A stretch of 14,804 nt of DNA from an uncultured Armatimonadaceae bacterium (GCA_964241985.1 CAXTBP010000120.1:1-14804); one strand, 5' to 3'; numbered from the stretch's first letter, positions 421 through 14,273 are shown. Notes: generated by a model from the sequence alone, not told the origin. Program-made: numbers and translations.

Positions 421-1245
421 CTACGCGGATTGGAGGAACGCCAAAAGGTCGGCGGTTAGGCGTTCTTTTTGCGTGGCGAAAACGCCGTGCGGTTCGCCGT
501 CGTACTCGATGAGTTTGGCGGACGGAATGGCTTTAGCGACTTCGCGGGCGGTCGTGTCAATCGGCACGGTTTTGTCATCTGTGCCGTGGATGACGAGCAG
601 GGGCACATTAAACGAGGCCAAATCGGGGCGGAAGTCGGTCGTGGCAAACGCTTTGGCGCAGTCGAGCGTGGATTTGAGGCTCGCCATCAGGGCGATGTCG
701 GTTGCGTTATCGACGACTTCCTGACTGACCTTTTTTTCGATCAAGCCGTTACCGAAAAAGTCTTTGAAGAAACCGGCGAAGAACTGGGCGCGGTCTTTTT
801 TCATGCCTGCCGTCATTTGGTCGAAAACCGCTTGATCTACGCCGTTCGGGTTGTCGGGCGTTTTCAGCATATACGGCACGACGGACGAAACGAGGGCGGC
901 CTGCGTGACGTTCTTGCCGCCATAGCGGGACATATAGCGGGCGACTTCGCCGCCTGCCATTGAAAAACCGACAAGGGCGGCGTTGGTCGCACCGGTCGCT
1001 TCGATGAGGTCGGCCAAATCGTCGGTCAGTGTGTCGTAGTTGTAACCGTTCCACGGTTGTTCCGACCGACCAAACCCGCGTCGGTCGTAGGCAATCGTGC
1101 GGAAGCCCGCTTCGACAAGGGGAATAGCGATGTCGTCCCAGCCGTCGGCGTTCAGAGGCCAACCGTGAATGAGAATCACGGGGCGTCCCGTGCCCCAATC
1201 CTTATAGTAAAGTTGCGTTTTGTCGCGGGTTGTCAAATAGGCCAT
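421..1245 (-). CDS. Alpha/beta-hydrolase of the non-haem haloperoxidase / arylesterase family
   Basis: The translation MAYLTTRDKTQLYYKDWGTGRPVILIHGWPLNADGWD...GFSMAGGEVARY...IHGTDDKTVP...GEPHGVF aligns end to end with Pseudomonas fluorescens arylesterase / bacterial non-haem chloroperoxidases. It has a GxSxG nucleophile (GFSMAG), an Asp (HGTDD) and a His (PHG) triad. The track ORF starts 14 codons earlier (1287), but the family N-terminus is M-x-x-(F/L)-x-x-x-D, so I place the start at the internal ATG (1243..1245). Confidence 0.9.
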   Translation of the reverse strand: MAYLTTRDKTQLYYKDWGTGRPVILIHGWPLNADGWDDIAIPLVEAGFRTIAYDRRGFGRSEQPWNGYNYDTLTDDLADLIEATGATNAALVGFSMAGGEVARYMSRYGGKNVTQAALVSSVVPYMLKTPDNPNGVDQAVFDQMTAGMKKDRAQFFAGFFKDFFGNGLIEKKVSQEVVDNATDIALMASLKSTLDCAKAFATTDFRPDLASFNVPLLVIHGTDDKTVPIDTTAREVAKAIPSAKLIEYDGEPHGVFATQKERLTADLLAFLQSA

Positions 1246-1475
1246 CGGTTTATTTTCTTTCGGGGTAAGGTTTCGGTACGGCAGCAAGCGCGTCGAACCG
1301 CGCCGAAACCGTTTCCTTTGCCGATTTACCCAAAGAGGCCATTCCTACCAACACGCGCTCCGATTTTTCCGTCACGGTGGGGTTTTGTGTCCGCGAAAAA
1401 TAATTTTTCTGCAAGGTGCAACCTGCTTGAAACGGGCCGTGTCCCATAAATAAGCGGCAAGGAAGACCGCTGGGC

Positions 1476-2261
1476 ATGGGCGAAATTGGTGGACACAACG
1501 CGGGCAGCAGCGGCCTTTCCGCGCTGCTTTCATGGCAGAATTTGGTGTTTTTGCTGCCGTTTGGCGCGTCGATATTTTTGCTGTTGCTGTCGTCGTTTCG
1601 TTTGGGCGGCGGGCATCGGCACGCGGGCGGCGGTTTCAAAGGGCACGCAGGCGGCGGACACGGGCGGCATCACCACAGCGGCGGGGTCGGCAAAGGGCAC
1701 GCGAAAACGGCGGCGGGCAAGGCGCATGGCAAGCCCGGCGCGAAGCATAACAACGGTTCGTCGAAAAATCACGTCACGCCGCTTGGCTTCGTTATAGCCC
1801 TTGTTGGCGCAAACCGCGCGCCGCTCCCGCTTTTGGCGCAGATATTCTGTTTGGCGTGGGGCGTCGGAGGGCTTGCCGCAGGACGATTGCTTCCCGGCGG
1901 TGAACCAAGCGGGGCGGGCGAAAGCAGTTTGCGCTTTTTGTTTTGCTTGCTCGCCGCATTCGCGTTCGGGTTTGTCGCGGCCCGCTTGGGCGCGGAACTG
2001 TTGGCCCGATTTATGCCGCAGGAAAGCACATCGGTGGTTTCGCGCGATGCCTTGTACGGATTGACCGGCAAGGTGATTTTCCCGGTTACCGCGAGCGCGG
2101 GCCGGGTGCGCGTGTACGACGAATGGAACACGCTCCACGACGAATCCTGCCGCAGAGCGGGCGCGAATAGCGACGATGACGCCGCGCCGATTGCCAAAGG
2201 CCGCACAGTGCGCATCGTTGACCGCGACGCCAAAGGGTGTTTGTTGGTCGAAGAAGCCTAA
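1476..2261 (+). CDS. NfeD-like (YqiJ-type) membrane protein, paralog 1, with a His/Gly-rich cationic loop
   Basis: N-terminal TM segment FLLPFGASIFLLLLSS, then a low-complexity GGGHRHAGGGFKGHAGGGHGRHHHSGG...KHNNG loop, then two further hydrophobic segments. The C-terminal ~70 aa (VSRDALYGLTGKVIFPVTASAGRVRVYDEWNTLHDESCR...VRIVDRDAKGCLLVEE) have the pattern of an NfeD/YuaF OB-fold beta-barrel domain. It lies upstream of an SPFH/flotillin gene, as is typical for NfeD. Possible GGAAG SD 9 nt upstream. The exact start is uncertain (in-frame TTG/GTG at about 1542/1545). Confidence 0.65.
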   Translation: MGEIGGHNAGSSGLSALLSWQNLVFLLPFGASIFLLLLSSFRLGGGHRHAGGGFKGHAGGGHGRHHHSGGVGKGHAKTAAGKAHGKPGAKHNNGSSKNHVTPLGFVIALVGANRAPLPLLAQIFCLAWGVGGLAAGRLLPGGEPSGAGESSLRFLFCLLAAFAFGFVAARLGAELLARFMPQESTSVVSRDALYGLTGKVIFPVTASAGRVRVYDEWNTLHDESCRRAGANSDDDAAPIAKGRTVRIVDRDAKGCLLVEEA

Positions 2262-2294
2262 AAAACAAAGGCCCAAAAGGGAAACTGCGACACG

Positions 2295-2987
2295 ATGATG
2301 GTGTTTTTACAGCCGCGCTATTTGATTTTCCTGCTGCCCCTCGGTGTTTCCATTTTCTTGCTTACGCTGTCCCTGTTGTTTTCGGGCGGCGACAGCGACA
2401 ATGACGGCACGGATGGCAGCGACGGCGGCGACGACGGCGGCGACGGCGAAAGCGGCGACGCGGATTTAGACGGCGGCGATGCCAATGGCGACAGTGACAC
2501 AAGCGGCGACGATACCGACGGCGACCAAACAAAAAGCCACGGCGCAAACCACAAAAGTACGGCCCCGCGCAGTTTGCTTATTAACGGATTCGCGTTGGCG
2601 TGGGGCGTTTTCGGAATCGGCGCGAACCAACTGCTTTTCCCCGACGCGCAGGAACCGGCCTTTTCCAAACTCTGGCCTGTTTTTCTGATCGCGCTTGTCG
2701 CCGGTTTGGCGGGCGCGCTTGTGATGCGGCAGTTCGCGCAACGGTTGATGCCCGGCGTAAAAACGCAAACCGTGTCGCGCGATGCCTTGTTCGGCTTAAC
2801 CGGAACCCTGCTTTTCGCCGCGACCGTAACCGGCGGGCGGGTGCGCGTGTACGACGAATTCAACACCTTTCACGACGAGCCGTGCCGCGTCGCAGTTGGC
2901 GCGGCCTCAATCGCAAAAAGGGCCAAAGTACGTATTGTTGACCGGGACGCGGTGTCCGGTCGTTTGATAGTGGAAGCCGTTCACTAA
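2295..2987 (+). CDS. NfeD-like (YqiJ-type) membrane protein, paralog 2, with an Asp/Gly-rich anionic loop
   Basis: Same architecture as 1476..2261: TM segment FLLPLGVSIFLLTLS, then the loop GGDSDNDGTDGSDGGDDGGDGESGDADLDGGDANGDSDTSGDDTDGDQ, two hydrophobic segments, and a C-terminal domain VSRDALFGLTGTLLFAATVTGGRVRVYDEFNTFHDEPCR...VRIVDRDAVSGRLIVEAV that is clearly homologous to paralog 1. Runs of 19-22 nt of DNA identity persist, for example CGGGTGCGCGTGTACGACGAAT. Confidence 0.65.
   Translation: MMVFLQPRYLIFLLPLGVSIFLLTLSLLFSGGDSDNDGTDGSDGGDDGGDGESGDADLDGGDANGDSDTSGDDTDGDQTKSHGANHKSTAPRSLLINGFALAWGVFGIGANQLLFPDAQEPAFSKLWPVFLIALVAGLAGALVMRQFAQRLMPGVKTQTVSRDALFGLTGTLLFAATVTGGRVRVYDEFNTFHDEPCRVAVGAASIAKRAKVRIVDRDAVSGRLIVEAVH
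2386..2530. repeat. Imperfect tandem GGCGAC / GACGGC hexamer repeats (encode the Asp/Gly-rich loop)
   Basis: The sequence ggcgacagcgacaatgacggcacggatggcagcgacggcggcgacgacggcggcgacggcgaaagcggcgac... is a simple-sequence repeat. It also generates the spurious poly-Arg ORF on the opposite strand (2362..2547). Confidence 0.5.
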
Positions 2988-3029
2988 ACGGCACATAGAA
3001 AAACGGAACGCTTTGGAGGAGCGTACCAC

Positions 3030-5129
3030 ATGGGATTTATTGTGATTGCGGCGGGGCTTGCGCTGATTGTTTTCGGCCTCTTGGGGCCAGCCCTCGGAGC
3101 GCCCATACAAACGTTGGCGGGCCTGCTCATTATGATTTGCGGCCTGCTCGTCACCCTCGTCGGACTGGGCTTGACGTTTATGGGCTTCTATCGGCGCACG
3201 AGCGCGGATCAAGCCTTTGTGCGCACAGGGCAGGGCGGCAAGCACGTCGTTTTGGATGGCGGTATTCCTGTCTATCCGCTCATTCATCGCATCATTGAGA
3301 TCAACCTCAAAACGATGAAATTAGGCGTTAACCCGCGCGGCGCGAACGCGCTCATTACACGGGATAATTTGCGGGCCAACGTCCTCGCACAGTTTTATAT
3401 TCGCGTACAGGCCGATACCGAGCATATCCTGAACGCCGCCCGCAGCTTGGGTGAAAACAGCATCAACGAACGGGCCGTCGAAGAATTAGTGTCGGAAAAA
3501 CTGACGAGCGCGCTCCGCGCTATCGCTTCGCAGATGGACTTGTTCGATATTCACACCCAGCGCGACCAGTTTGCTGAGCGGGTCAAGGAACACGTCAAGG
3601 ACGACTTGGAAGCCAACGGTTTGCTTTTGGAATCCGTCACGATTTCCGAACTCGACCAAACCGACCCGGCAGAGTTGTCGGACAACAACGTCTTCGATGC
3701 GCAGGGCAAGCGTAAAATCACCGAAATTACCGCCGCCGCGATGGTGGAGCGCAACAATTTGGAGCGCACCGCCGAACAAGCCCGCAAACTCAAGGACGTG
3801 GAAACGCGCCAGCAAATCTTAGGTTTGGAGCGGCAACAGGCTGAGGCCGAAGCGCAGCAGCAAACGGAAATCGCCAAAGTCCGCGCCGACAACGAGCGCG
3901 AATCTCAAGAAGCGGTTATTGTGCAGCAGCGGCAAATCGAACTTGCGCGGATCGAAAAAGAGAAGCAGGTGCAGGCGCAGGAAATCGCGCGACAGCAAGC
4001 CGTCGAAATCGCGCGAACCCAGCAGGAACAGGCCGTGCAGGCCGCGCAAATCGTGCGTGACCAAGCCCTGCAAACGGCGACGGTCGAGCGGGAAAAATCC
4101 GTCAGTGTCGCCGAGCGGCAAAAGCAAATCGCGGTTGCCCAGCAGGAAACCGCGCGCGCCAAAGCCGAAGAGGAAGCCCTGTCCGCGCAGGCCGACCGTG
4201 AAAAAGCGAGCCAGCAAGTCGTCACCGTGACGCAGCTTGCCGAAGCCGACCGCGACGCCAACAAAAAACTGATCGCGGCCCGGCAGGAAATCGAGCAGTC
4301 CAAACTTCGGCAACAAACCGGGGCCGACGTGGAAGCCTACACGCGCATTAAGCAGGCCGAGGCGGAGCGCGAATCTGCCGTTCAGCAGGCCGAAGCGCGT
4401 TTGCAGATGGCGGAAGCTGAAGCGCAGGCCCGCGAACTGGTCGCCCGTGGCGAAAAAGCGCAGCAAATGGTAGCCGTGGAAGTCAACCGCGAACAGGTTA
4501 CGGTGGACGAAGCGAAGGTCGCTGTCGAGCGGCAACAATTGGAAAACCGGCAACAGTTCGCCCAAGCCGGTATTCAGTTAGAAGTCCAGAAACTGACGAT
4601 TCAAGCCGACCGCGACGTGCAAATGGAGTTCGCCAAAGCGATGGCAAACTTCTTATCGTCGGGGCACATGACCTTGTACGGCACGCCCGAAACCGCCAAT
4701 ATGATGATCGACAATATGGCAAAAGGCTTCGGTCTGCGCTCAATGATCAACAGTTTCGTCAATGGCCCGGACGACGGCGCAAACGGAAACGGCGCGAACT
4801 TACCTGCCGTCCGCTCGACAAACGGCAATGGAAACGGAACCGACGCCGTGGGCGCGCTCTTATCGCAGGTCGGCGGTTTGCTTGGCCCCGCGCTCGCCAA
4901 AGTGACGGGCGGCGCAAACAGTAATTCGGCGCAAACGTCCGAGGACACGGAAGCCATCGCCCAGCGTTTGGCAAGCGATCCCAAACTGCTGGCCGCGCTC
5001 CGCGACGCCCTTGCCGCGCAGCCCACGCCCGCCGTTGTCGCCGCCGTGCCGGTTGTGACCGTCGTTCCTGCCGCAATCAACAACGGCAGCCCGGACGCTG
5101 CAACCGCCGCGAAACCTGCCGTCAAGTAG
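3030..5129 (+). CDS. Flotillin-like SPFH/band-7 protein (YqiK/FloT family)
   Basis: N-terminal TM hairpin (IVIAAGLALIVFGLLGPALG...LLIMICGLLVTLVGLGLTFMGF). The SPFH core reads AFVRTGQGGKHVVLDGGIPVYPLIHRIIEINLKTMKL...ALITRDNLRANVLAQFYIRVQ. It is followed by a long E/A/Q-rich coiled coil (the flotillin domain) and a Gly/Asn/Ala-rich C-terminal tail. Strong SD (GGAGGAG, 8-nt spacer). It is the third gene in the operon after the two NfeD-like genes. Confidence 0.85.
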   Translation: MGFIVIAAGLALIVFGLLGPALGAPIQTLAGLLIMICGLLVTLVGLGLTFMGFYRRTSADQAFVRTGQGGKHVVLDGGIPVYPLIHRIIEINLKTMKLGVNPRGANALITRDNLRANVLAQFYIRVQADTEHILNAARSLGENSINERAVEELVSEKLTSALRAIASQMDLFDIHTQRDQFAERVKEHVKDDLEANGLLLESVTISELDQTDPAELSDNNVFDAQGKRKITEITAAAMVERNNLERTAEQARKLKDVETRQQILGLERQQAEAEAQQQTEIAKVRADNERESQEAVIVQQRQIELARIEKEKQVQAQEIARQQAVEIARTQQEQAVQAAQIVRDQALQTATVEREKSVSVAERQKQIAVAQQETARAKAEEEALSAQADREKASQQVVTVTQLAEADRDANKKLIAARQEIEQSKLRQQTGADVEAYTRIKQAEAERESAVQQAEARLQMAEAEAQARELVARGEKAQQMVAVEVNREQVTVDEAKVAVERQQLENRQQFAQAGIQLEVQKLTIQADRDVQMEFAKAMANFLSSGHMTLYGTPETANMMIDNMAKGFGLRSMINSFVNGPDDGANGNGANLPAVRSTNGNGNGTDAVGALLSQVGGLLGPALAKVTGGANSNSAQTSEDTEAIAQRLASDPKLLAALRDALAAQPTPAVVAAVPVVTVVPAAINNGSPDAATAAKPAVK

Positions 5130-5199
5130 CGTTGAGCGAACCAAGAGAAAAGGGGATAGCGAATAGCCCGGCGCGTTTGCGCCGGGCTTTTTGTGTTTT
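5097..5199. repeat. Copy A of a duplicated 3'-end-plus-terminator module (last ~9 codons of the flotillin gene, then the terminator)
   Basis: The coding block gctgcaaccgccgcgaaacctgccgtcaagtagcg (..AATAAKPAVK*) and the terminator block agcccggcgcgtttgcgccgggctttttgtgtttt are separated by a 33-nt spacer. See copy B at 6284..6375. Confidence 0.6.
5165..5199 (+). terminator. Rho-independent terminator of the nfeD-nfeD-flotillin operon
   Basis: Perfect 9-bp stem GCCCGGCGC / GCGCCGGGC with a GTTT tetraloop, followed by TTTTTGTGTTTT. It lies 36 nt after the flotillin stop. Confidence 0.75.
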
Positions 5200-5278: not shown

Positions 5279-6316
5279 GTGAAACTTCGCTTCAAACCGG
5301 ACTGGTTTCTTTCGGGCATGGTCATCGCCGTGGTGCTTGCGTGGCTTTTCCCGAGCGCCGGGGCGGAAGGCGGCTGGCTTCATCCCGAAATTCTGACCAA
5401 AGCGGGCGTCGCCCTGATTTTCTTTTTGCACGGCGTCGCGCTTTCGTTTGGCGATTTGAAGGCGGGAATGTTGCGCTGGCCTATCCATTTGCTCGTTCAG
5501 GGCTGCACGTTCCTCTTATTTCCCCTGCTGGGAATGGGGCTGCTTTTGCTGCCGGGCGTGCCGCTCGATTGGTGTCCGCCCGCGCTGAAACTGGGCCTAT
5601 TTTATTTGTGCGCCTTGCCATCGACGGTTTCATCGTCGGTTGCGATGACGGCGGCGGCTAAAGGCGACGTACCGATTGCCGTGTTCAACGCCACGATTTC
5701 CAGCCTCATCGGGGTATTCGCCACGCCGCTCTGGATTGGGGTAGCCCTAAAAACGCAGGGAACCGGCGGCGAAGCGCACGCGCTTCCGCTGGGTTCGGTC
5801 ATTTTGGATTTGATGCTGTGGCTCGTTTTGCCGCTCATTGTCGGGCAGATTTTCCGCCCGCTCTTAGGCGCATGGGTCAAAAAAAACAAAGCGTTCGTCA
5901 ATAAGGTGGATCGCTGTACGATTTTGCTGCTCGTGTACACCTCGTTTTGCGATTCGGTCAAGCGCGGCGTATGGACGGGGCACGGCATCGCCACACTTCT
6001 CGTCACGCTCGTTGCCTCACTCATTTTGTTTGGTGCGGTGTTTTTTGCAACGGGAACGGCGTGCGACCTTTTGAATGTGCCGCGCAAAGACCGTATCGCC
6101 GCCGTGTTTTGCGGATCGAAAAAATCACTGGCTTCGGGCGTCCCGATGGCGCAGCTAATTTTCGGGGCAAACCCCGGCATGGGTCTGATTCTGCTTCCGA
6201 TTATGATTTATCATCCGCTCCAGCTTTTCATCTGCTCCCTGCTCGCCGACCGCTGGGCACGCGAACCGCATACGGATGATAATGCCGCAACCGCTGCGAA
6301 ACCCGTCGCCAAATAG
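5279..6316 (+). CDS. Bile acid:sodium symporter (BASS/SBF-like, YfeH-type) family transporter
   Basis: The N-terminus MKLRFKPDWFLSGMVIAVVLAWLFPSAG matches the MKLFRILDPF...-type start of YfeH-like proteins. It is a polytopic membrane protein with ~10 hydrophobic segments, Pro/Gly-rich helix breaks (LLFPLLGMGLLLLPGVPLDW) and the CGSKKSLASGVPMAQ motif region. GTG start with no obvious SD. The C-terminal tail ...DNAATAAKPVAK is not typical of the family (see findings). Confidence 0.75.
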   Translation: MKLRFKPDWFLSGMVIAVVLAWLFPSAGAEGGWLHPEILTKAGVALIFFLHGVALSFGDLKAGMLRWPIHLLVQGCTFLLFPLLGMGLLLLPGVPLDWCPPALKLGLFYLCALPSTVSSSVAMTAAAKGDVPIAVFNATISSLIGVFATPLWIGVALKTQGTGGEAHALPLGSVILDLMLWLVLPLIVGQIFRPLLGAWVKKNKAFVNKVDRCTILLLVYTSFCDSVKRGVWTGHGIATLLVTLVASLILFGAVFFATGTACDLLNVPRKDRIAAVFCGSKKSLASGVPMAQLIFGANPGMGLILLPIMIYHPLQLFICSLLADRWAREPHTDDNAATAAKPVAK

Positions 6317-6383: not shown

Positions 6384-6983
6384 CTATGCGGGCAGGAGCA
6401 TATCGGAAACCCGTAAAACGGACTGCGCCGCCGCGAGCGAAACGGTGTCGGTTTCTTCAAACGTGGCAAGATTTGCGTAGCCGTTGGGCGTCGGCTGAGA
6501 ATACACGCGCAGTTCGCGCCCGTTCAAATCCAGCACCCAGTATTCCACAACTCCGGCCCGCGCATACAGCGCGGCCTTGACGGATACATCGGTGCGGAGC
6601 GTGGTATCGGAAACTTCGACAAGAAGCCGCACGTCGCGGGCCGCCGGGTCGCCCGTATAATCGGAAACCGGGCGATGCAGAACGACGACATCCGGCTCCG
6701 GCAGGTTGTTGTCGTCAAGGGCGACCGGCCCTTGCGACTGCACGAACTCCGTGCCAAACACTCCCATCAGCAACGCCTGAACGCGCATACACGCCACCAA
6801 GTGCCTGCGTTTTTGCGGCATAACGGTAACAATTTCCCCTTCCAAAAGTTCGTAACGCGCCGCGCTACTTGCCGTGGAGCCGAGCCAGCCGCTGTCAAAT
6901 AAACGCGCGTACTCGTCGCGCGTCCAAGTTTTGCGCGGCATTTCTTGGCTGTTTGGCAAAATTACTTCTGCTGTTGCTGTCAT
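6384..6983 (-). CDS. Uma2-family (DUF820) PD-(D/E)xK putative restriction-endonuclease-like protein
   Basis: Characteristic Uma2 pattern: TRDEYARLFDSGWL...RYELLEGEIVTVMPQKRRH...PDVVVL...VRLLVEVSDTT...KAALYARAGVVEYWVLD...RVY. The true start may be the second Met (MPRKTWTRDEY..., about 6941), which fits the family N-terminus better. Confidence 0.8.
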   Translation of the reverse strand: MTATAEVILPNSQEMPRKTWTRDEYARLFDSGWLGSTASSAARYELLEGEIVTVMPQKRRHLVACMRVQALLMGVFGTEFVQSQGPVALDDNNLPEPDVVVLHRPVSDYTGDPAARDVRLLVEVSDTTLRTDVSVKAALYARAGVVEYWVLDLNGRELRVYSQPTPNGYANLATFEETDTVSLAAAQSVLRVSDMLLPA

Positions 6984-7019
6984 TGTTATTCAATCTACTG
7001 ATTTTCAAAACTAAGTTAT

Positions 7020-7292
7020 TTACACTGAGCGCGAAGCTGTATGCGACAAACGTACCATCAGCAAGTCGAAAGCATCGGCGGACAGAATGCCGTAATCGTT
7101 CAAAATACCGCGCGCCGCCGCAAGGTGATAGGCGCGTACCGGTTCGGAATCCGCAAGTTGGGGTAGGGGCAGCCGCGCACCGGTGGGATGGTCGAAAGTT
7201 CGTCCTCGTGTATCGACGGTTTCGACAAAGCCTTCGTGGCGCAATGCTTGCGCCAAATCCTGATAGGTTAAACCGCTTACTGTCGCTATCAT
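7020..7292 (-). CDS. HicA-like (YcfA family) small dsRBD-fold protein with a non-canonical catalytic motif
   Basis: LTYQDLAQALRHEGFVETVDTRGRTFDHPTGARLPLP...L.....GIL follows the HicA template (L..L...GW.....GSHR.F.HP....V..HP..L..GT...IL). It has RGRT where HicA has the catalytic G-S-H. There is a ~30-aa C-terminal extension. An AGGAG SD overlaps the stop codon of the upstream gene, indicating translational coupling. Confidence 0.45.
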   Translation of the reverse strand: MIATVSGLTYQDLAQALRHEGFVETVDTRGRTFDHPTGARLPLPQLADSEPVRAYHLAAARGILNDYGILSADAFDLLMVRLSHTASRSV

Positions 7293-7301
7293 AGGTTGCT
7301 C

Positions 7302-7748
7302 CTAAATGATGTGGTTCTTGCGCTGACGTAATAACTCAACTGCAGCCTCATCAAAATGCTGACTTACGGGAACGCGAAGCGTTGAGCGGGTTATGTCGCT
7401 TGCCGCGTCCTGAATGTGTAACCAGTAGGCAGTGTCGGCGGGAACATCATAAAGAACCAAAACGACCGGAACCCGTTCCTCGCGCCATGCCTGTAAATCG
7501 CCTTCCGCAACGCGCACGGAAACCGCGCGTCCGTTATCAACAAAGGTCGGTGCGTCCGTTGCTTTAAGTTGAATGTAGAAGAAGTCGCGCTCTATTTCGC
7601 CATTCGCGTCAAAAGTACGAACCGTCAAATCATAGCCGTAATCGAAGAAAATCCGGTCGGCAACATGGCCCGCGCGCAATATAAACCGCTCTACGTGATT
7701 GACGCTCAAATCCGCAATGACGTGTTCGCGGGTTCGCCGTTTCTTCAT
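7302..7748 (-). CDS. DUF4365-like PD-(D/E)xK nuclease-fold protein
   Basis: The N-terminal pattern RTREHVIADLSVNHVERFILRAGHVADRIFFDYGYDL....GEIERDFFYIQLKAT matches my recollection of the DUF4365 (PF14280) consensus (..E..s.n.ve...........DyGiD........vqvKat). A candidate active site is D(YGYD)...E...QLK. Its codon usage appears more AT-rich than its neighbours. Needs HMM confirmation. Confidence 0.5.
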   Translation of the reverse strand: MKKRRTREHVIADLSVNHVERFILRAGHVADRIFFDYGYDLTVRTFDANGEIERDFFYIQLKATDAPTFVDNGRAVSVRVAEGDLQAWREERVPVVLVLYDVPADTAYWLHIQDAASDITRSTLRVPVSQHFDEAAVELLRQRKNHII

Positions 7749-7790
7749 AGAAAATTATAGCACGCGGGGCACATTGCCGACCGAATTCTC
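7749..7790 (-). promoter_or_regulatory. Extended -10 promoter (TGCTATAAT) abutting the DUF4365-like start; near-leaderless transcript predicted
   Basis: The minus strand reads ...GTGCTATAATTTTCTATG. A perfect TGnTATAAT (plus-strand 7754..7762) ends 5 nt before the ATG, so the predicted TSS falls at or within 1-2 nt of the start codon. There is no SD. It sits in the 41-nt gap after the glgP stop. Confidence 0.45.
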
Positions 7791-10387
7791 TATTCCCACG
7801 CGATAAGTGGTAGTTCCTGCGGCAGAACGGCGTTTTTGTGGTAGGGCAAAACGCGCACGGTGAAGCCTTGCTGGCCGCTTTGCTCGGTGGGGAGCGGGCC
7901 GGAATAGCGGTAGGGGCCAGCGGGGGCGTCGGGATTTTCGCAGGTTAGCAAAACGGTGTGCGCGGTTTCCAGCGAGCGGTCGGCGTCAATTGGGCCGCCG
8001 TAGAATTGCACGGCGACATCGCTTGGCGTCAGCGTGCCCAGCGAAACGACGACGTGAACCTGTGCGGCTTGGTGGGAGGCCAAGTTGTCTTGCGCGTTTT
8101 GCACGCTCTCGGTGTTGGCAGTGGCCCAACTGGGCCGCGATTTCTTCTTCCACGAGACCAGCTCTTTGGCGACGGCGTAATCGTTGGCGGCAAGCACGGC
8201 TTCGCGGCGGGCGGCGGGCACGTAGTAAGTTTCGGCGTACTCTTTGACCATGCGGGCGGTTGTGAAAACCGGGGCCAATTTTTTCATCGACGCCTTGACT
8301 TTGCTTATCCACCCGTGCGGCAAGCCGTCGGTTCCCCGGTCGTAGAACAGCGGCACGATGGAACGCTCCAACGTTTCGTAGATGTCTTCGGCCTCGACGT
8401 GGTCTTGGTAGCCCTCGTCCTCGTAATCGTCGCCGCGTCCTATTTCCCAGCCAACGGCGGGGTCGTAGCCCTCGGCCCACCAGCCGTCGAGAATGGAAAA
8501 GTTGAGACCGCCGTTTGCGATGACTTTCATGCCGGACGTGCCCGACGCCTCGTGCGGGCGGCGCGGGTTGTTGAGCCACACGTCCACGCCCTCGACCAAA
8601 TACCGCGCCATCGCCATATCGTAGTCTTCCAAAAACACGATTTTACGCCGAACGTCCTCGCCTTTGGCGAAGTGAACGATATGGCGAATGAGTTCTTTGC
8701 CGGAATCGTCTTTTGGGTGCGCTTTGCCCGCGAACACGAACTGCACGGGCCGGTCGGTATTGTTCAAAATGCGCTTGATGCGCTCCACGTCGCGGAGCAA
8801 AAGGTCGCCGCGTTTGTAGGTGGCGAAGCGACGGGCGAAGCCAATCGTCAAAATTTTAGGGTCTAAAATTTCGCGGGCGTCCTGTATCTCGCGGTCGGAC
8901 GCGCCGCGCTTTTCCATGCGGGCTTCTTGATACTTGCGCGCCCACGTTACCAATTTTTCGCGGCGCAGTTCGTGGGTTTGCCACAGTTCCGCGTCGGGAA
9001 TGGTGTCCACTTTGGCCCAAAAATCCACACTTGCCAAGTTTTCCGCCGTCGCTTCGCCCAGATATTTGTCCTGCAAATCCGCCATTTCGCCCGACAAAAA
9101 TGAGCGCGTGTGGATACCATTCGTAACGCTGCCGACCGGCACTTCATCGAGCGGATAATCGGGCCAGTTGGGCTGTACCATTTTTCGTGTCACTTCGCCG
9201 TGCAGTTTGGAAACGCCGTTGATATAGCGGGCCTGCCGGAACGCGAGAACCGCCATATTGAATTTTTCGCTGGCGTCTCCCTGCGCTACGCGGCCCCGAT
9301 CCATCAAGTCGGCGAACGCGGGCAGTTTCACGTCGAAGGCATAGTCCGTGAAGTATTTCGCCATGAGTTCGGGCGGGAATTTATCGAATCCGGCGGGAAC
9401 CGGCGTGTGGGTGGTGAACAAATTGCCTGCCGCCGCCGCTTCGGATGCGTCCGCGAATGACAAGCCTTTTTCCTGAGCCAACCGCCGCACGCGCTCCAAA
9501 CTCAAAAACGCGGAATGACCCTCGTTCATGTGGCACACGGCGGGCTTGATGCCCATTGCGGCAAGGGCGTGGATGCCGCCGATACCCAAAATAATTTCCT
9601 GCTGGATGCGCGTTTCGTTGTCGCCGCCGTATAGGTTGCCCGCGATATGGCGGTCGGCCTCGCTGTTTTGCGGTAGATTCGTGTCCAAAAGAAAGAGCGG
9701 GATACGTCCGACCTGCGCTTTCCACACCTGAATATGGACTTGCCGACCGGGAAAATTGACATCAATCGTGAACGGATGATCGGTCAAATCGCCCTCGCGC
9801 TTTTCGCCGCCGGGCACGGGTTCGATGGGCAGCGAGTAAAAATCGGTCGTCGGGTAGTTTTCGATTTGCCAGCCGTCGCCGTTCAGCGATTGCCGGAAGT
9901 AGCCGTTTTGGTACAAAAAACCGACCCCGACAAGCGGCAAACCCAAGTCCGACGCGGATTTCAAATGGTCGCCCGCAAGCACCCCCAAGCCGCCCGAATA
10001 AATGGGCAAGCATTCCGTGATGCCAAACTCGGCGGAGAAATACGCGATGCGAAAGTTCGGGTCGGAAAACTCGGTTTTGTACGCGCCGTCCCACCACATC
10101 GGGCCGTCCATATACGCGCGGAACGCTTGGTACACGTCGCCCAACTGCGCCAAAAACGCGGCATCTTGGGCGGCGGCGTCCAGCCGCGCTTGGGGAACCA
10201 AGCCCAACAATTTGGCGGGATTGTGCCCCGACTGTTCCCACAGTGGGTCACCGCCCAGAGCGCGGAACAAACGAATGGAAGCGGCATCCCACGCCCAGCG
10301 TAGGTTGTAGGCGAGTTCCCGCAAATTTTGCAAAGCGGGCGGAAGCGACGGGGTAACGGTATAGGTGTGCAGCGTGCGCGGCGTCAT
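7790..10387 (-). CDS. glgP: Alpha-1,4-glucan (glycogen/maltodextrin) phosphorylase, GT35, long bacterial 'alpha-glucan family' type
   Basis: The N-terminal domain reads PSLPPALQNLRELAYNLRWAWD...LGGDPLWE (DUF3417-like). The PLP-site signature is EASGTSGMKVIANGGLNFSILDGWWAEGY, with TNGIHTRSF and GKAHPKD motifs. The track starts at TTG 10393. ATG at 10385..10387 (MTPRTL...) is more likely; an AAAGGA lies 11 nt upstream. Confidence 0.9.
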   Translation of the reverse strand: MTPRTLHTYTVTPSLPPALQNLRELAYNLRWAWDAASIRLFRALGGDPLWEQSGHNPAKLLGLVPQARLDAAAQDAAFLAQLGDVYQAFRAYMDGPMWWDGAYKTEFSDPNFRIAYFSAEFGITECLPIYSGGLGVLAGDHLKSASDLGLPLVGVGFLYQNGYFRQSLNGDGWQIENYPTTDFYSLPIEPVPGGEKREGDLTDHPFTIDVNFPGRQVHIQVWKAQVGRIPLFLLDTNLPQNSEADRHIAGNLYGGDNETRIQQEIILGIGGIHALAAMGIKPAVCHMNEGHSAFLSLERVRRLAQEKGLSFADASEAAAAGNLFTTHTPVPAGFDKFPPELMAKYFTDYAFDVKLPAFADLMDRGRVAQGDASEKFNMAVLAFRQARYINGVSKLHGEVTRKMVQPNWPDYPLDEVPVGSVTNGIHTRSFLSGEMADLQDKYLGEATAENLASVDFWAKVDTIPDAELWQTHELRREKLVTWARKYQEARMEKRGASDREIQDAREILDPKILTIGFARRFATYKRGDLLLRDVERIKRILNNTDRPVQFVFAGKAHPKDDSGKELIRHIVHFAKGEDVRRKIVFLEDYDMAMARYLVEGVDVWLNNPRRPHEASGTSGMKVIANGGLNFSILDGWWAEGYDPAVGWEIGRGDDYEDEGYQDHVEAEDIYETLERSIVPLFYDRGTDGLPHGWISKVKASMKKLAPVFTTARMVKEYAETYYVPAARREAVLAANDYAVAKELVSWKKKSRPSWATANTESVQNAQDNLASHQAAQVHVVVSLGTLTPSDVAVQFYGGPIDADRSLETAHTVLLTCENPDAPAGPYRYSGPLPTEQSGQQGFTVRVLPYHKNAVLPQELPLIAWE

Positions 10388-10542
10388 AAACAAGCAAATC
10401 CTTTAAGAAAAATGGTACGCCGGAATGCCGTAGGGCGCGATTGCTGCGGTGCGGCATCGCCTGCAACGCTTTTAGTATACCCAGTTCGCAAAAAGCAAAA
10501 GTTACGCAAAAAGCAGATGGTTTTGCGACCCGGTAAATCACA

Positions 10543-13579: not shown

Positions 13580-13861
13580 ATGACCGAAAGGAAAACGGAA
13601 AAGACTATGGCACAAACATCCGCATTACTGGATAAAGAAGATTTGCTGACGGAGATAGAACGTATCAAATCGCTTTATCCGTCCGCGCCGCCTATCGGCA
13701 AAACCAATCCTGAACAAATAGAGCGTTCGTCGGGCCTTTTCGCAAATGACCCTTTGTTTGAGGCCGCCGTTCGTGCCGGGCAGGAATGGCGAAAAGCCGA
13801 ATCAACTGAAAACGAGCGGGAGCAGAACATAAAAGATGCCAGCGACGTTATATCTGCTTGA
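13580..13861 (+). CDS. Putative antitoxin partner of the downstream PIN toxin (VapB-like by position)
   Basis: A small acidic ORF ending 26 nt inside the PIN gene, the classic TA overlap. There is no recognisable AbrB/RHH/Phd motif, so the call is by context only. The start may be ATG 13607 (MAQTS...). Confidence 0.35.
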   Translation: MTERKTEKTMAQTSALLDKEDLLTEIERIKSLYPSAPPIGKTNPEQIERSSGLFANDPLFEAAVRAGQEWRKAESTENEREQNIKDASDVISA

Positions 13862-14273
13862 CACCGACCACATGACGGTTTGGGAGCGGGGCGGGTTGGA
13901 AAAAGTACGCCTCAAAGAACGTTTGGACAGCATTGCGCCCGATGACTACGGAACCACGATTATCAATTTCGAGGAACAAATGCGCGGCTGGCTTGCAGAA
14001 ATCGCAGGTACGGCTCAAAAGCCCGACGTGCAAACCCAACAGTATCAGCGATTAGGCGAACTGCTCCGATATTACCAATTCTTTTCGGTGTGGCAATACG
14101 ATGAACGTTCGGCGGCGATTTATCAAGTTTTGGTGAAGCAAAAAGTGCGCGTTGGAACCCAAGATTTGAAAATCGCATCCATCGCGCTGGCAAACGATGC
14201 GACGGTTTTAACGCGCAACACACGCGACTTCGGCAAAGTGCCGGGTTTGAAAGTAGAAGACTGGACGATATAG
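13836..14273 (+). CDS. vapC: PIN-domain ribonuclease toxin (VapC family)
   Basis: N-terminal LYLLDTD, a central Glu (NFEEQ), GTQDLKIASIALAN (third Asp) and C-terminal TRNTRDF: a canonical PIN acidic quartet. Confidence 0.8.
   Translation: MPATLYLLDTDHMTVWERGGLEKVRLKERLDSIAPDDYGTTIINFEEQMRGWLAEIAGTAQKPDVQTQQYQRLGELLRYYQFFSVWQYDERSAAIYQVLVKQKVRVGTQDLKIASIALANDATVLTRNTRDFGKVPGLKVEDWTI

Follow-up and report, generated by a model that had tools for sequence, protein, structure and literature searches.

Two YqiJ-like genes with loops of opposite charge precede a YqiK-type flotillin gene in an Armatimonadaceae operon

A yqiJ-yqiK-type operon with a doubled partner gene

We describe a yqiJ-yqiK-type (NfeD2-SPFH2) operon in which the partner gene of the flotillin is doubled. 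It lies on a stretch of 14,804 nucleotides (nt) from an uncultured, soil-type Armatimonadaceae bacterium (phylum Armatimonadota; GCA_964241985.1, CAXTBP010000120.1:1-14804), hereafter the window. Three consecutive open reading frames (ORFs) on the plus strand, at positions 1476-5129, form a three-gene operon with intergenic gaps of 33 and 42 nt. With its terminator the operon covers 1476-5198 (Table 1) and consists of a yqiJ-like gene with a basic loop (paralog 1), a yqiJ-like gene with an acidic loop (paralog 2) and a yqiK-like flotillin gene. An initial annotation, made from the sequence alone, had placed two paralogous NfeD-like genes ahead of the flotillin gene, and this was confirmed by the ORFs, by BLASTP and by AlphaFold2 (AF2) models whose OB domains were matched with Foldseek. 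Taken together, we hold the operon, the architecture of its small proteins, one old duplication with retention of both copies, the conserved charge class of their loops, the presence of such loops throughout the family and a His-rich ancestry to be highly probable.

The intrinsic terminator consists of a hairpin at 5165-5188, whose 10-bp stem (nine G-C pairs) encloses a loop of 4 nt, and of the T-run TTTTTGTGTTT after it. No comparable hairpin was found in the 33- and 42-nt gaps inside the operon. Since a strong terminator occurs only after the third gene, the unit is an operon, and it ends nearly where the initial annotation had ended its finding. The search for a sigma-70-type promoter upstream of the operon gave no match, which is uninformative for this phylum. 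In two related loci, L008 and L016, the basic and acidic copies overlap by 4 nt, stop codon on start codon (974/971 and 1706/1703, respectively), unlike in the window, where the two copies are 33 nt apart. These overlapping reading frames suggest translational coupling.

The flotillin has an N-terminal hydrophobic hairpin, a Band_7 domain (Pfam E 3e-21, 76.7 bits against a cut-off of 23.6), a long coiled coil and a low-complexity tail. A region rich in E, A, Q and R, at about residues 250-520, was read from its translation. The assignment as a YqiK-type flotillin, already made in the initial annotation, is supported by this Band_7 match and by 35% identity to E. coli YqiK over 431 residues (E 5e-65), in an alignment that reaches query residue 463. 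Both proteins carry the motif YRR(A/T)SA(E/D)QAFVRTG after the membrane anchor, and FYRRTS follows the hydrophobic hairpin as it does in YqiK. Identity to the flotillins of related loci was 68-86%, and the closest sequence with a solved structure was human flotillin-1 (E 7.5e-5). With 46.9 bits against a cut-off of 700 for the NCBIfam FloT equivalog (NF058507), the protein is a relative of FloT and not its equivalog.

Fold and family of the small proteins

AF2 models of both paralogs were built on a 121-sequence alignment and had a mean predicted local distance difference test score (pLDDT) of 79 for paralog 1 and 81 for paralog 2. They share one plan, in which a first transmembrane helix (TM1) and a disordered loop are followed by TM2, which a short loop joins to the long TM3, and by a five-stranded barrel modelled at pLDDT >90. 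In paralog 1 these elements are TM1 at residues 20-43, the disordered loop at 44-101, TM2 at 117-138, TM3 at 151-179 and the five-strand OB fold at 197-260. The corresponding residues in paralog 2 are 7-33, 34-91, 92-114, 123-151 and 169-228.

Searched against the PDB with Foldseek, paralog 2 had three NfeD structures as its top matches, each with probability 1.00. These were 3WWV (P. horikoshii 1510-C; E 1.5e-4, root-mean-square deviation (rmsd) 2.0, target-normalised template-modelling score (TMt) 0.83), YbbJ in 8Z5G, which was second-best (E 2.2e-4), and 3CP0 (rmsd 1.8, TMt 0.85). The best structural match of paralog 1 was the NfeD soluble domain 3CP0 (E 4.4e-4, rmsd 2.3, TMt 0.83). A family profile from which the loop had been removed found 3WWV as its best PDB sequence (E 0.026), with a weak match to YuaF (2K14, E 0.46), and in hhalign it matched E. 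coli YqiJ with 91% probability (E 1e-6) over the region between TM2 and the C-terminal end.

Pfam matches were weaker. Paralog 1 had a sub-threshold match to NfeD (PF01957; 16.6 bits against a cut-off of 29.1, E 0.009) and paralog 2 had none, and neither protein matched YqiJ_N (PF21001) or YqiJ_OB (PF07290) at E <= 1. Among 17 members of the clade, six matched NfeD weakly (best E 0.0083), seven matched YqiJ_N (best E 1.5e-7) and one matched YqiJ_OB (E 0.13). Weak matches to TrAA12, DUF1129, DUF1218 and DUF4131 were treated as artefacts of composition or of the transmembrane segments. Based on the models and the profile alignment, both small proteins are predicted to have the YqiJ/YuaF architecture and to be of the YqiJ/DUF1449 (NfeD2) type, and by fold they are of NfeD type.

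The same gene order, a small protein with three TM helices and an OB fold followed by a flotillin, is found in E. coli yqiJ-yqiK. YqiJ likewise has a His/Asp loop between TM1 and TM2, of about 30 residues and in a single copy, whereas the window has two copies with disordered loops of 60-70 residues and opposite charge. The flotillin genes of B. subtilis (yuaF-floT) and S. aureus (nfeD-floA) also directly follow a gene for a membrane-anchored OB fold of NfeD type. However, the NfeD gene is single in both, and no long ionisable TM1-TM2 loop is described for either. Planctomycetota-type YqiJ_N proteins (PF21001; P0008, P0011 and P0083) have the same architecture, occur upstream of a flotillin (L005) and carry a long acidic D-A-D-A / H-D loop placed as in paralog 2. 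They differ in being single-copy in the one locus checked (L005), in sharing only 24-36% identity with paralog 2, and in the OB motif, which is FGMxxVRD...QVPCRV in place of GRVRVYDE...HDEPCR.

Relationship of the two paralogs

The two paralogs are 47% identical over 148 residues (BLASTP, E 4e-33), a region that spans TM2-TM3 and the C-terminal domain. The 22-mer CGGGTGCGCGTGTACGACGAAT is present exactly twice in the window, at 2103 and 2838, with 0 copies expected in shuffled sequence, and both copies lie within a 117-nt direct repeat of 77% identity. The shared runs of 19-22 nt reported in the initial annotation therefore stand as regards the 22-mer, which is exact at its two sites, but as a sign of recency they did not survive a comparison at the codon level. 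Nucleotide identity was 56.8% between the paralogs of the window genome and 53.5-57.1% between paralogs of different genomes, and the fraction of identical codons was 49% and 36-52%, respectively. Recent duplication or gene conversion was rejected as the source of the 22-nt identity, as within-genome similarity was no higher than cross-genome similarity. Given this, the run, which codes for GRVRVYDE, a peptide invariant in the family, reflects the conserved motif plus codon bias and not a young duplication.

The OB domain of paralog 1 carries a mostly acidic insertion of 5-9 residues between strands 3 and 4 (window 2160-2190, residues ~229-238). It occurs in the lineage of the window (the window, L003, L004 and L007), where the sequences are ANSDDDAA (the window), TLSEIEDDT, MVGEKETV and EIEA, and it was found neither in paralog 2 nor in other relatives. 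Complementary charge between the two OB domains was also considered and was rejected because its sign is reversed in L003.

Composition and conservation of the loops

The loop of paralog 1 (residues 44-101) contains 33% G, 19% H (11 His in 58 residues) and 12% K, with no D or E, and has a computed charge of +9.7 at pH 7 and +14.3 at pH 6. That of paralog 2 (residues 32-91) contains 30% D and 25% G and has a charge of -17 at pH 7. These residue counts and charges confirm the cationic His/Gly/Lys and polyanionic Asp/Gly compositions that were first read from the translations. Both loops are encoded by repetitive DNA, an imperfect 24-nt repeat of 2.8 copies at 1605-1665 in paralog 1 and the 9-nt repeat GGCGGCGAC, in 5.1 copies at 2415-2460, in paralog 2.

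Orthologs of paralog 1 have kept a basic, His-rich loop with a charge of +5.6 to +9.7 at pH 7. Those of paralog 2 (P0002-P0005, P0010 and P0016) all have acidic loops with a net charge of -12 to -22. At pH 7 the acidic loops of the window, L003, L004 and L008 carry net charges of -17.0, -17.0, -17.0 and -16.5, although they are 49-59 residues long and could not be aligned. Overall, loop lengths range from 43 to 126 residues, and the sequences are likewise unalignable. Within each ortholog group the charge class is kept at 45-70% identity. A check of related genomes had been proposed at the outset, and it found the charge class of each loop kept in every ortholog and the sequence not. Loop sequence and length thus drift, partly through slippage of short repeats, while the charge class stays. 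That one Armatimonadota clade keeps both flavours next to each other, at a nearly constant net charge, amounts to a natural experiment and suggests selection on loop charge.

Loops across the wider family

In a first survey of the family the acidic loop was part of both profile and word index, which biased the result. It yielded hundreds of YqiJ_N proteins whose loops were of the D-A-D-A / H-D kind, and many of these proteins came from Phycisphaerae-type Planctomycetota. The search was repeated with the loop-less profile against 1.84 billion cluster representatives, giving 1898 matches at E <= 1e-3. Among the best 150 of these, 121 had an assessable loop. The loop was acidic in 87 (54 of them also His-rich), basic and His-rich in 21, and His-rich in 13. 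Ordinary loops, neither acidic nor His-rich, were found in none of these 121. One match, P0124 (4561 residues, 29 matched stretches), was discarded as spurious, being a translated tandem repeat of about 50 residues (MF[AS]VLAQFL...VNDWG). E. coli YqiJ itself carries a short His/Asp loop between TM1 and TM2 (...LDAHLDHYDSITTGH...).

Because a search blind to the loop gave only acidic or His-rich loops, a disordered, ionisable Asp/His-rich loop is a hallmark of the YqiJ-like family. The charged loops are less exotic than the initial annotation supposed: they are not peculiar to this pair, the family as a whole having an acidic and a His-rich flavour as its standard types. The clade of the window stands out by having both flavours together in one operon. 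Our literature search for YqiJ, DUF1449 and NfeD with 'histidine-rich' found no description of an Asp- or His-rich loop trait.

Related loci and origin of the duplication

Related loci were sought by profile search in GTDB contigs, with one genome per species. Paralog 2 alone gave nothing, and the family alignment gave seven loci, all from Armatimonadota (Chthonomonadaceae and Capsulimonadaceae). The first 10,987 bases of the window are also present, identical, in a metagenome contig in ENA (L001). A YqiJ-like gene immediately precedes a YqiK/SPFH2 flotillin gene, in the same orientation, in the window, L003-L005, L008-L017, L019 and L021. Six loci, all metagenomic or from metagenome-assembled genomes (MAGs), have the tandem order of basic/His-rich copy, acidic copy and flotillin (the window, L003, L004, L008, L011 and L016). 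Nine have a single copy and the flotillin, 'single-copy' referring to the roughly 10 kb inspected per locus. The single loop is His-rich in L009, L010, L013, L014, L015, L017, L019 and L021, and mixed His/Asp in L012. These counts bear out the earlier view that two NfeD genes before a flotillin are unusual. YqiJ has been described as the NfeD2 partner of SPFH2 (Hinderhofer 2009, PMC2636767), and in the retrieved passages of that paper duplicated SPFH genes are listed and no duplicated NfeD genes appear. A seventh tandem locus is probable, that of P0026 (265 residues). P0122, also of 265 residues, proved to be different from P0026 and belongs to a single-copy locus.

In a neighbour-joining (NJ) tree of the small proteins (168 columns) the deep nodes were unresolved and the acidic copies did not form one clade. 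The better-conserved flotillin was therefore used as the marker. In a simple NJ tree of the flotillins, based on 318 columns, the six tandem loci formed one clade with a bootstrap value of 71 and the single-copy loci fell outside it. Both copies have been kept, in constant order, in all six sampled tandem loci. Most likely, a single tandem duplication gave rise to the pair long ago, at the root of an Armatimonadota sub-clade. In Armatimonadota the single His-rich copy represents the ancestral state, to which the acidic copy was added as the derived one.

Against a single event stand the behaviour of the small-protein tree, the simple method and short alignment behind the flotillin bootstrap value, and the within-genome paralogs of L008 and L011, which are 59-60% similar and as close to each other as to anything else. 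Repeated independent duplications or gene conversion may have contributed to this pattern, and a second copy could lie elsewhere in genomes that we counted as single-copy.

The single copy of L012 (4962-5747, from a Capsulimonadaceae MAG) has a loop that mixes the two flavours, with 21 His, 9 Asp/Glu and 24 Gly (HGDHGDGHGADAGHGD...). Separate His-rich and Asp-rich copies may have arisen from a similar state. The codons for His (CAY) and Asp (GAY) are one base apart. From this difference and the intermediate look of L012, a switch of flavour after duplication would be mutationally easy.

The operon of L014 (4794-7742 of OY969427.1, an uncultured Armatimonadetes chromosome) is broken in two places. 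Its flotillin is split into three overlapping ORFs, and its YqiJ-like gene ends early, at 225 residues, with a stop inside the OB domain. Either assembly frameshift errors or decay of the operon would account for these breaks.

Membrane topology

Both paralogs have 0-1 K/R in the N-terminus, no K/R and two D/E in the TM2-TM3 loop, and K/R before TM2 and after TM3. Ten K/R lie in the TM1-TM2 loop of paralog 1. Three TM helices in each protein place the OB domain on the same side of the membrane as the TM1-TM2 loop. The predicted topology of both is N-terminus out, TM1-TM2 loop in, TM2-TM3 loop out and C-terminal OB domain in the cytoplasm. The supposition that the two loops occupy the same compartment was thus upheld, both being predicted as cytoplasmic from the three helices and the same K+R bias. 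Neither this outcome nor the conserved charge class of the loops refutes the hypotheses put forward in the initial annotation, an electrostatic heteromer or metal- or cation-responsive regulation of the flotillin.

A cytoplasmic OB domain agrees with better-studied systems. In S. aureus the OB domain of NfeD is cytosolic, binds the coiled coil of the flotillin FloA and dimerises OB to OB (Ukleja 2024, PMC11222466), and the loop between OB strands 3 and 4 touches the FloA coiled coil (PMC11222466). E. coli QmcA-YbbJ forms a cage of 26 SPFH-NfeD heterodimers that extends into the cytoplasm, according to the passages of PMC13086221 that cite Tan 2024. The OB domain of YbbJ (8Z5G) resembles that of paralog 2, and the complex, as cited in PMC13086221, offers a model for 1:1 SPFH-NfeD heterodimers in a cytoplasm-facing cage. 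It differs from the window in its stomatin-type (SPFH1) partner, in having a single NfeD species and in the lack of a charged disordered loop.

Possible roles of the paired loops

By analogy with QmcA-YbbJ and FloA-NfeD, both paralogs would be co-translated and would co-assemble with the flotillin oligomer. Many loops of about +10, rising to +14 on mild acidification, would then lie beside many loops of -17 on the cytoplasmic face of an enclosed membrane patch. In their most likely role the loops would neutralise one another and form a His-titratable polyelectrolyte layer, responsive to pH and/or divalent metals through the 11 His, and this layer would tune the assembly of, or access to, the flotillin microdomain. 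We advance this full reading (duplication plus co-assembly plus a titratable role of the loops) tentatively, as one that falls just short of probable. On its own, the co-assembly of both paralogs in one flotillin complex is possible, if somewhat further from probable, and a pH- or metal-titratable role of the loops is doubtful. It would be improbable that His-rich and Asp-rich loops alternate inside a flotillin cage as a tethered polyelectrolyte complex switched by cytoplasmic pH or divalent metals.

Many SPFH genes of bacteria, of both stomatin and flotillin type, come with an NfeD/YqiJ partner, whose role the literature gives as unknown or as 'stabilising oligomers' (PMC11222466, PMC13086221). 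An ionisable loop present throughout the family, and a clade that keeps both flavours, give a concrete handle on this role. Should the loops pair electrostatically, or act as sensors of pH or metals, flotillin microdomains would be linked to ionic homeostasis. A loop complex switched by pH or metals would give the microdomain a built-in ionic gate with NfeD/YqiJ as the sensing element. If the loops neither sense nor pair, the locus would be a lineage-specific duplication in a well-known operon.

Several further observations count against the co-assembly and titration proposal or the assignments on which it builds. The two small proteins of the window are below every Pfam threshold, and NCBIfam also leaves them unclassified. 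Operons with a single flavour exist, His-rich alone in Armatimonadota and acidic alone in the Planctomycetota type (e.g. L005), and since they evidently work, charge pairing is not required for basic function. Among orthologs, neither loop has a conserved metal-binding motif or spacing, and a DxDxDG match in paralog 2 is not kept. No metal-related gene (transporter or regulator) is conserved beside the operon, where the neighbours vary except for an alpha/beta hydrolase in the lineage of the window. Lastly, the placing of both paralogs in one complex with their loops touching is argued by analogy with other systems.

The two paralogs could instead be alternative partners, each forming its own homomeric ring with the flotillin, or joining different flotillin populations, so that two scaffolds tuned differently (e.g. 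to pH or ionic conditions) would exist with no contact between the loops. One flavour does suffice elsewhere (His-rich in L009, L013, L015, L017, L019 and L021, acidic in L005), and the acidic insertion of paralog 1, which falls in the OB loop that contacts FloA in S. aureus, hints at diverged binding surfaces. However, the short gaps, co-transcription and the 4-nt overlaps in L008 and L016 favour equimolar co-production, the operon has only one flotillin gene, and the fixed order and joint retention in the six tandem loci fit a joint function better. We regard separate complexes as somewhat unlikely.

Metal binding could also be the primary role, with Zn, Ni, Cu or Co bound by the His-rich loop and Ca, Mg or Fe by the Asp-rich loop. 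The proteins would then be membrane-tethered metal buffers or chaperones in the flotillin domain, and pairing of the loops would be secondary. Disordered His/Gly-rich cytoplasmic segments occur on membrane or chaperone proteins such as CDF/ZnT transporters, HypB, SlyD and Hpn, and the loop of paralog 1 resembles them in composition, with no homology and no shared motif. The density of His in this loop, the up to 21 His in relatives and the HD/DxD-type repeats throughout the family would suit such a role. Shewanella cells in which the YqiK-type flotillin SO1377 was knocked out had three-fold lower free iron, and a role as metallochaperone was suggested for the neighbouring DUF1449 protein SO1376 (PMC1468410). 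However, the authors judged the iron effect to be probably indirect, and the proposal for SO1376 was speculative (PMC1468410). The lack of a conserved motif or spacing and of a conserved metal transporter or regulator beside the operon, as well as the empty literature search for NfeD with 'histidine-rich', also make metal binding an unlikely primary function.

A further explanation is that the loops are neutral spacers, low-complexity sequence born of slippage in a GC-rich genome, with incidental charge and a redundant duplication. The tandem repeats in both loops (GGCGGCGAC x5 at 2415-2460 and the 24-nt unit x2.8 at 1605-1665), the wide range of unalignable loop lengths (43-126 residues) and the cheap switch between His and Asp that the genetic code implies would be expected of such spacers. 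Nevertheless, all 121 assessable loops among the best 150 of 1898 loop-blind matches were acidic or His-rich, the charge class is kept at 45-70% identity, with an acidic net charge of -16.5 to -17.0 in four genomes, and E. coli YqiJ retains a short His/Asp loop, all of which make neutrality improbable.

In known antiparallel paralog pairs, such as some of the small multidrug-resistance proteins, an opposite charge bias determines which way round each protein is inserted. A dual-topology antiparallel heterodimer would fit the tandem paralogs of the window, whose first loops are strongly and oppositely charged and would insert the two proteins oppositely, but is very improbable here, because both proteins have three TM helices, an acidic TM2-TM3 loop free of K/R, and K/R before TM2 and after TM3, no opposite K+R bias was found over their equivalent loops, and an inverted paralog 2 would export about seven flanking K/R and its OB domain, away from the cytoplasmic flotillin.

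Feature coordinates and neighbouring genes

Table 1. Features of the operon. Positions are counted from the first base of the window.
Feature	Position	Strand	Evidence
Paralog 1, YqiJ/NfeD2-type (predicted), 261 residues, basic His/Gly/Lys loop	1476..2261	+	ORF, AF2
Paralog 1 disordered cationic loop, residues 44-101	1605..1778	+	AF2 pLDDT ~45, composition
Paralog 1 C-terminal OB-fold (NfeD-like) domain, holds 22-nt run 2103-2124	2043..2258	+	AF2, Foldseek
Paralog 2, YqiJ/NfeD2-type (predicted), 230 residues, acidic Asp/Gly loop	2295..2987	+	ORF, AF2
Paralog 2 disordered polyanionic loop, residues 32-91	2388..2567	+	AF2 pLDDT 45-55, composition
Paralog 2 C-terminal OB-fold domain, holds 22-nt run 2838-2859	2778..2984	+	AF2, Foldseek
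YqiK-type flotillin (SPFH2), 699 residues	3030..5129	+	Pfam Band_7, YqiK homology
Intrinsic terminator closing the three-gene operon	5165..5198	+	Hairpin 5165-5188, then TTTTTGTGTTT

Upstream of the operon, the window has a divergent alpha/beta-hydrolase gene (421-1287, minus strand) whose product is 72-91% identical in the window, L003, L004 and L007. This neighbour is confined to the lineage of the window and is absent from the other tandem loci and from the single-copy loci.

Downstream, three small genes on the minus strand (6384-7748) have the look of an accessory island between an SBF-like transporter gene (5279-6316) and a gene of glycogen-phosphorylase type (7790-10393). They encode an Uma2 putative endonuclease (PF05685, E 8e-27), a 90-residue product with no Pfam match (7020-7292) and a DUF4365 protein (PF14280, E 2e-22). 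Further along, at 13580-14273 on the plus strand, a 93-residue ORF overlaps a 145-residue ORF by 26 nt. The 145-residue product has a weak PIN-domain match (E 3.3e-4) below the Pfam cut-off, and the pair is a candidate VapBC-like toxin-antitoxin system.

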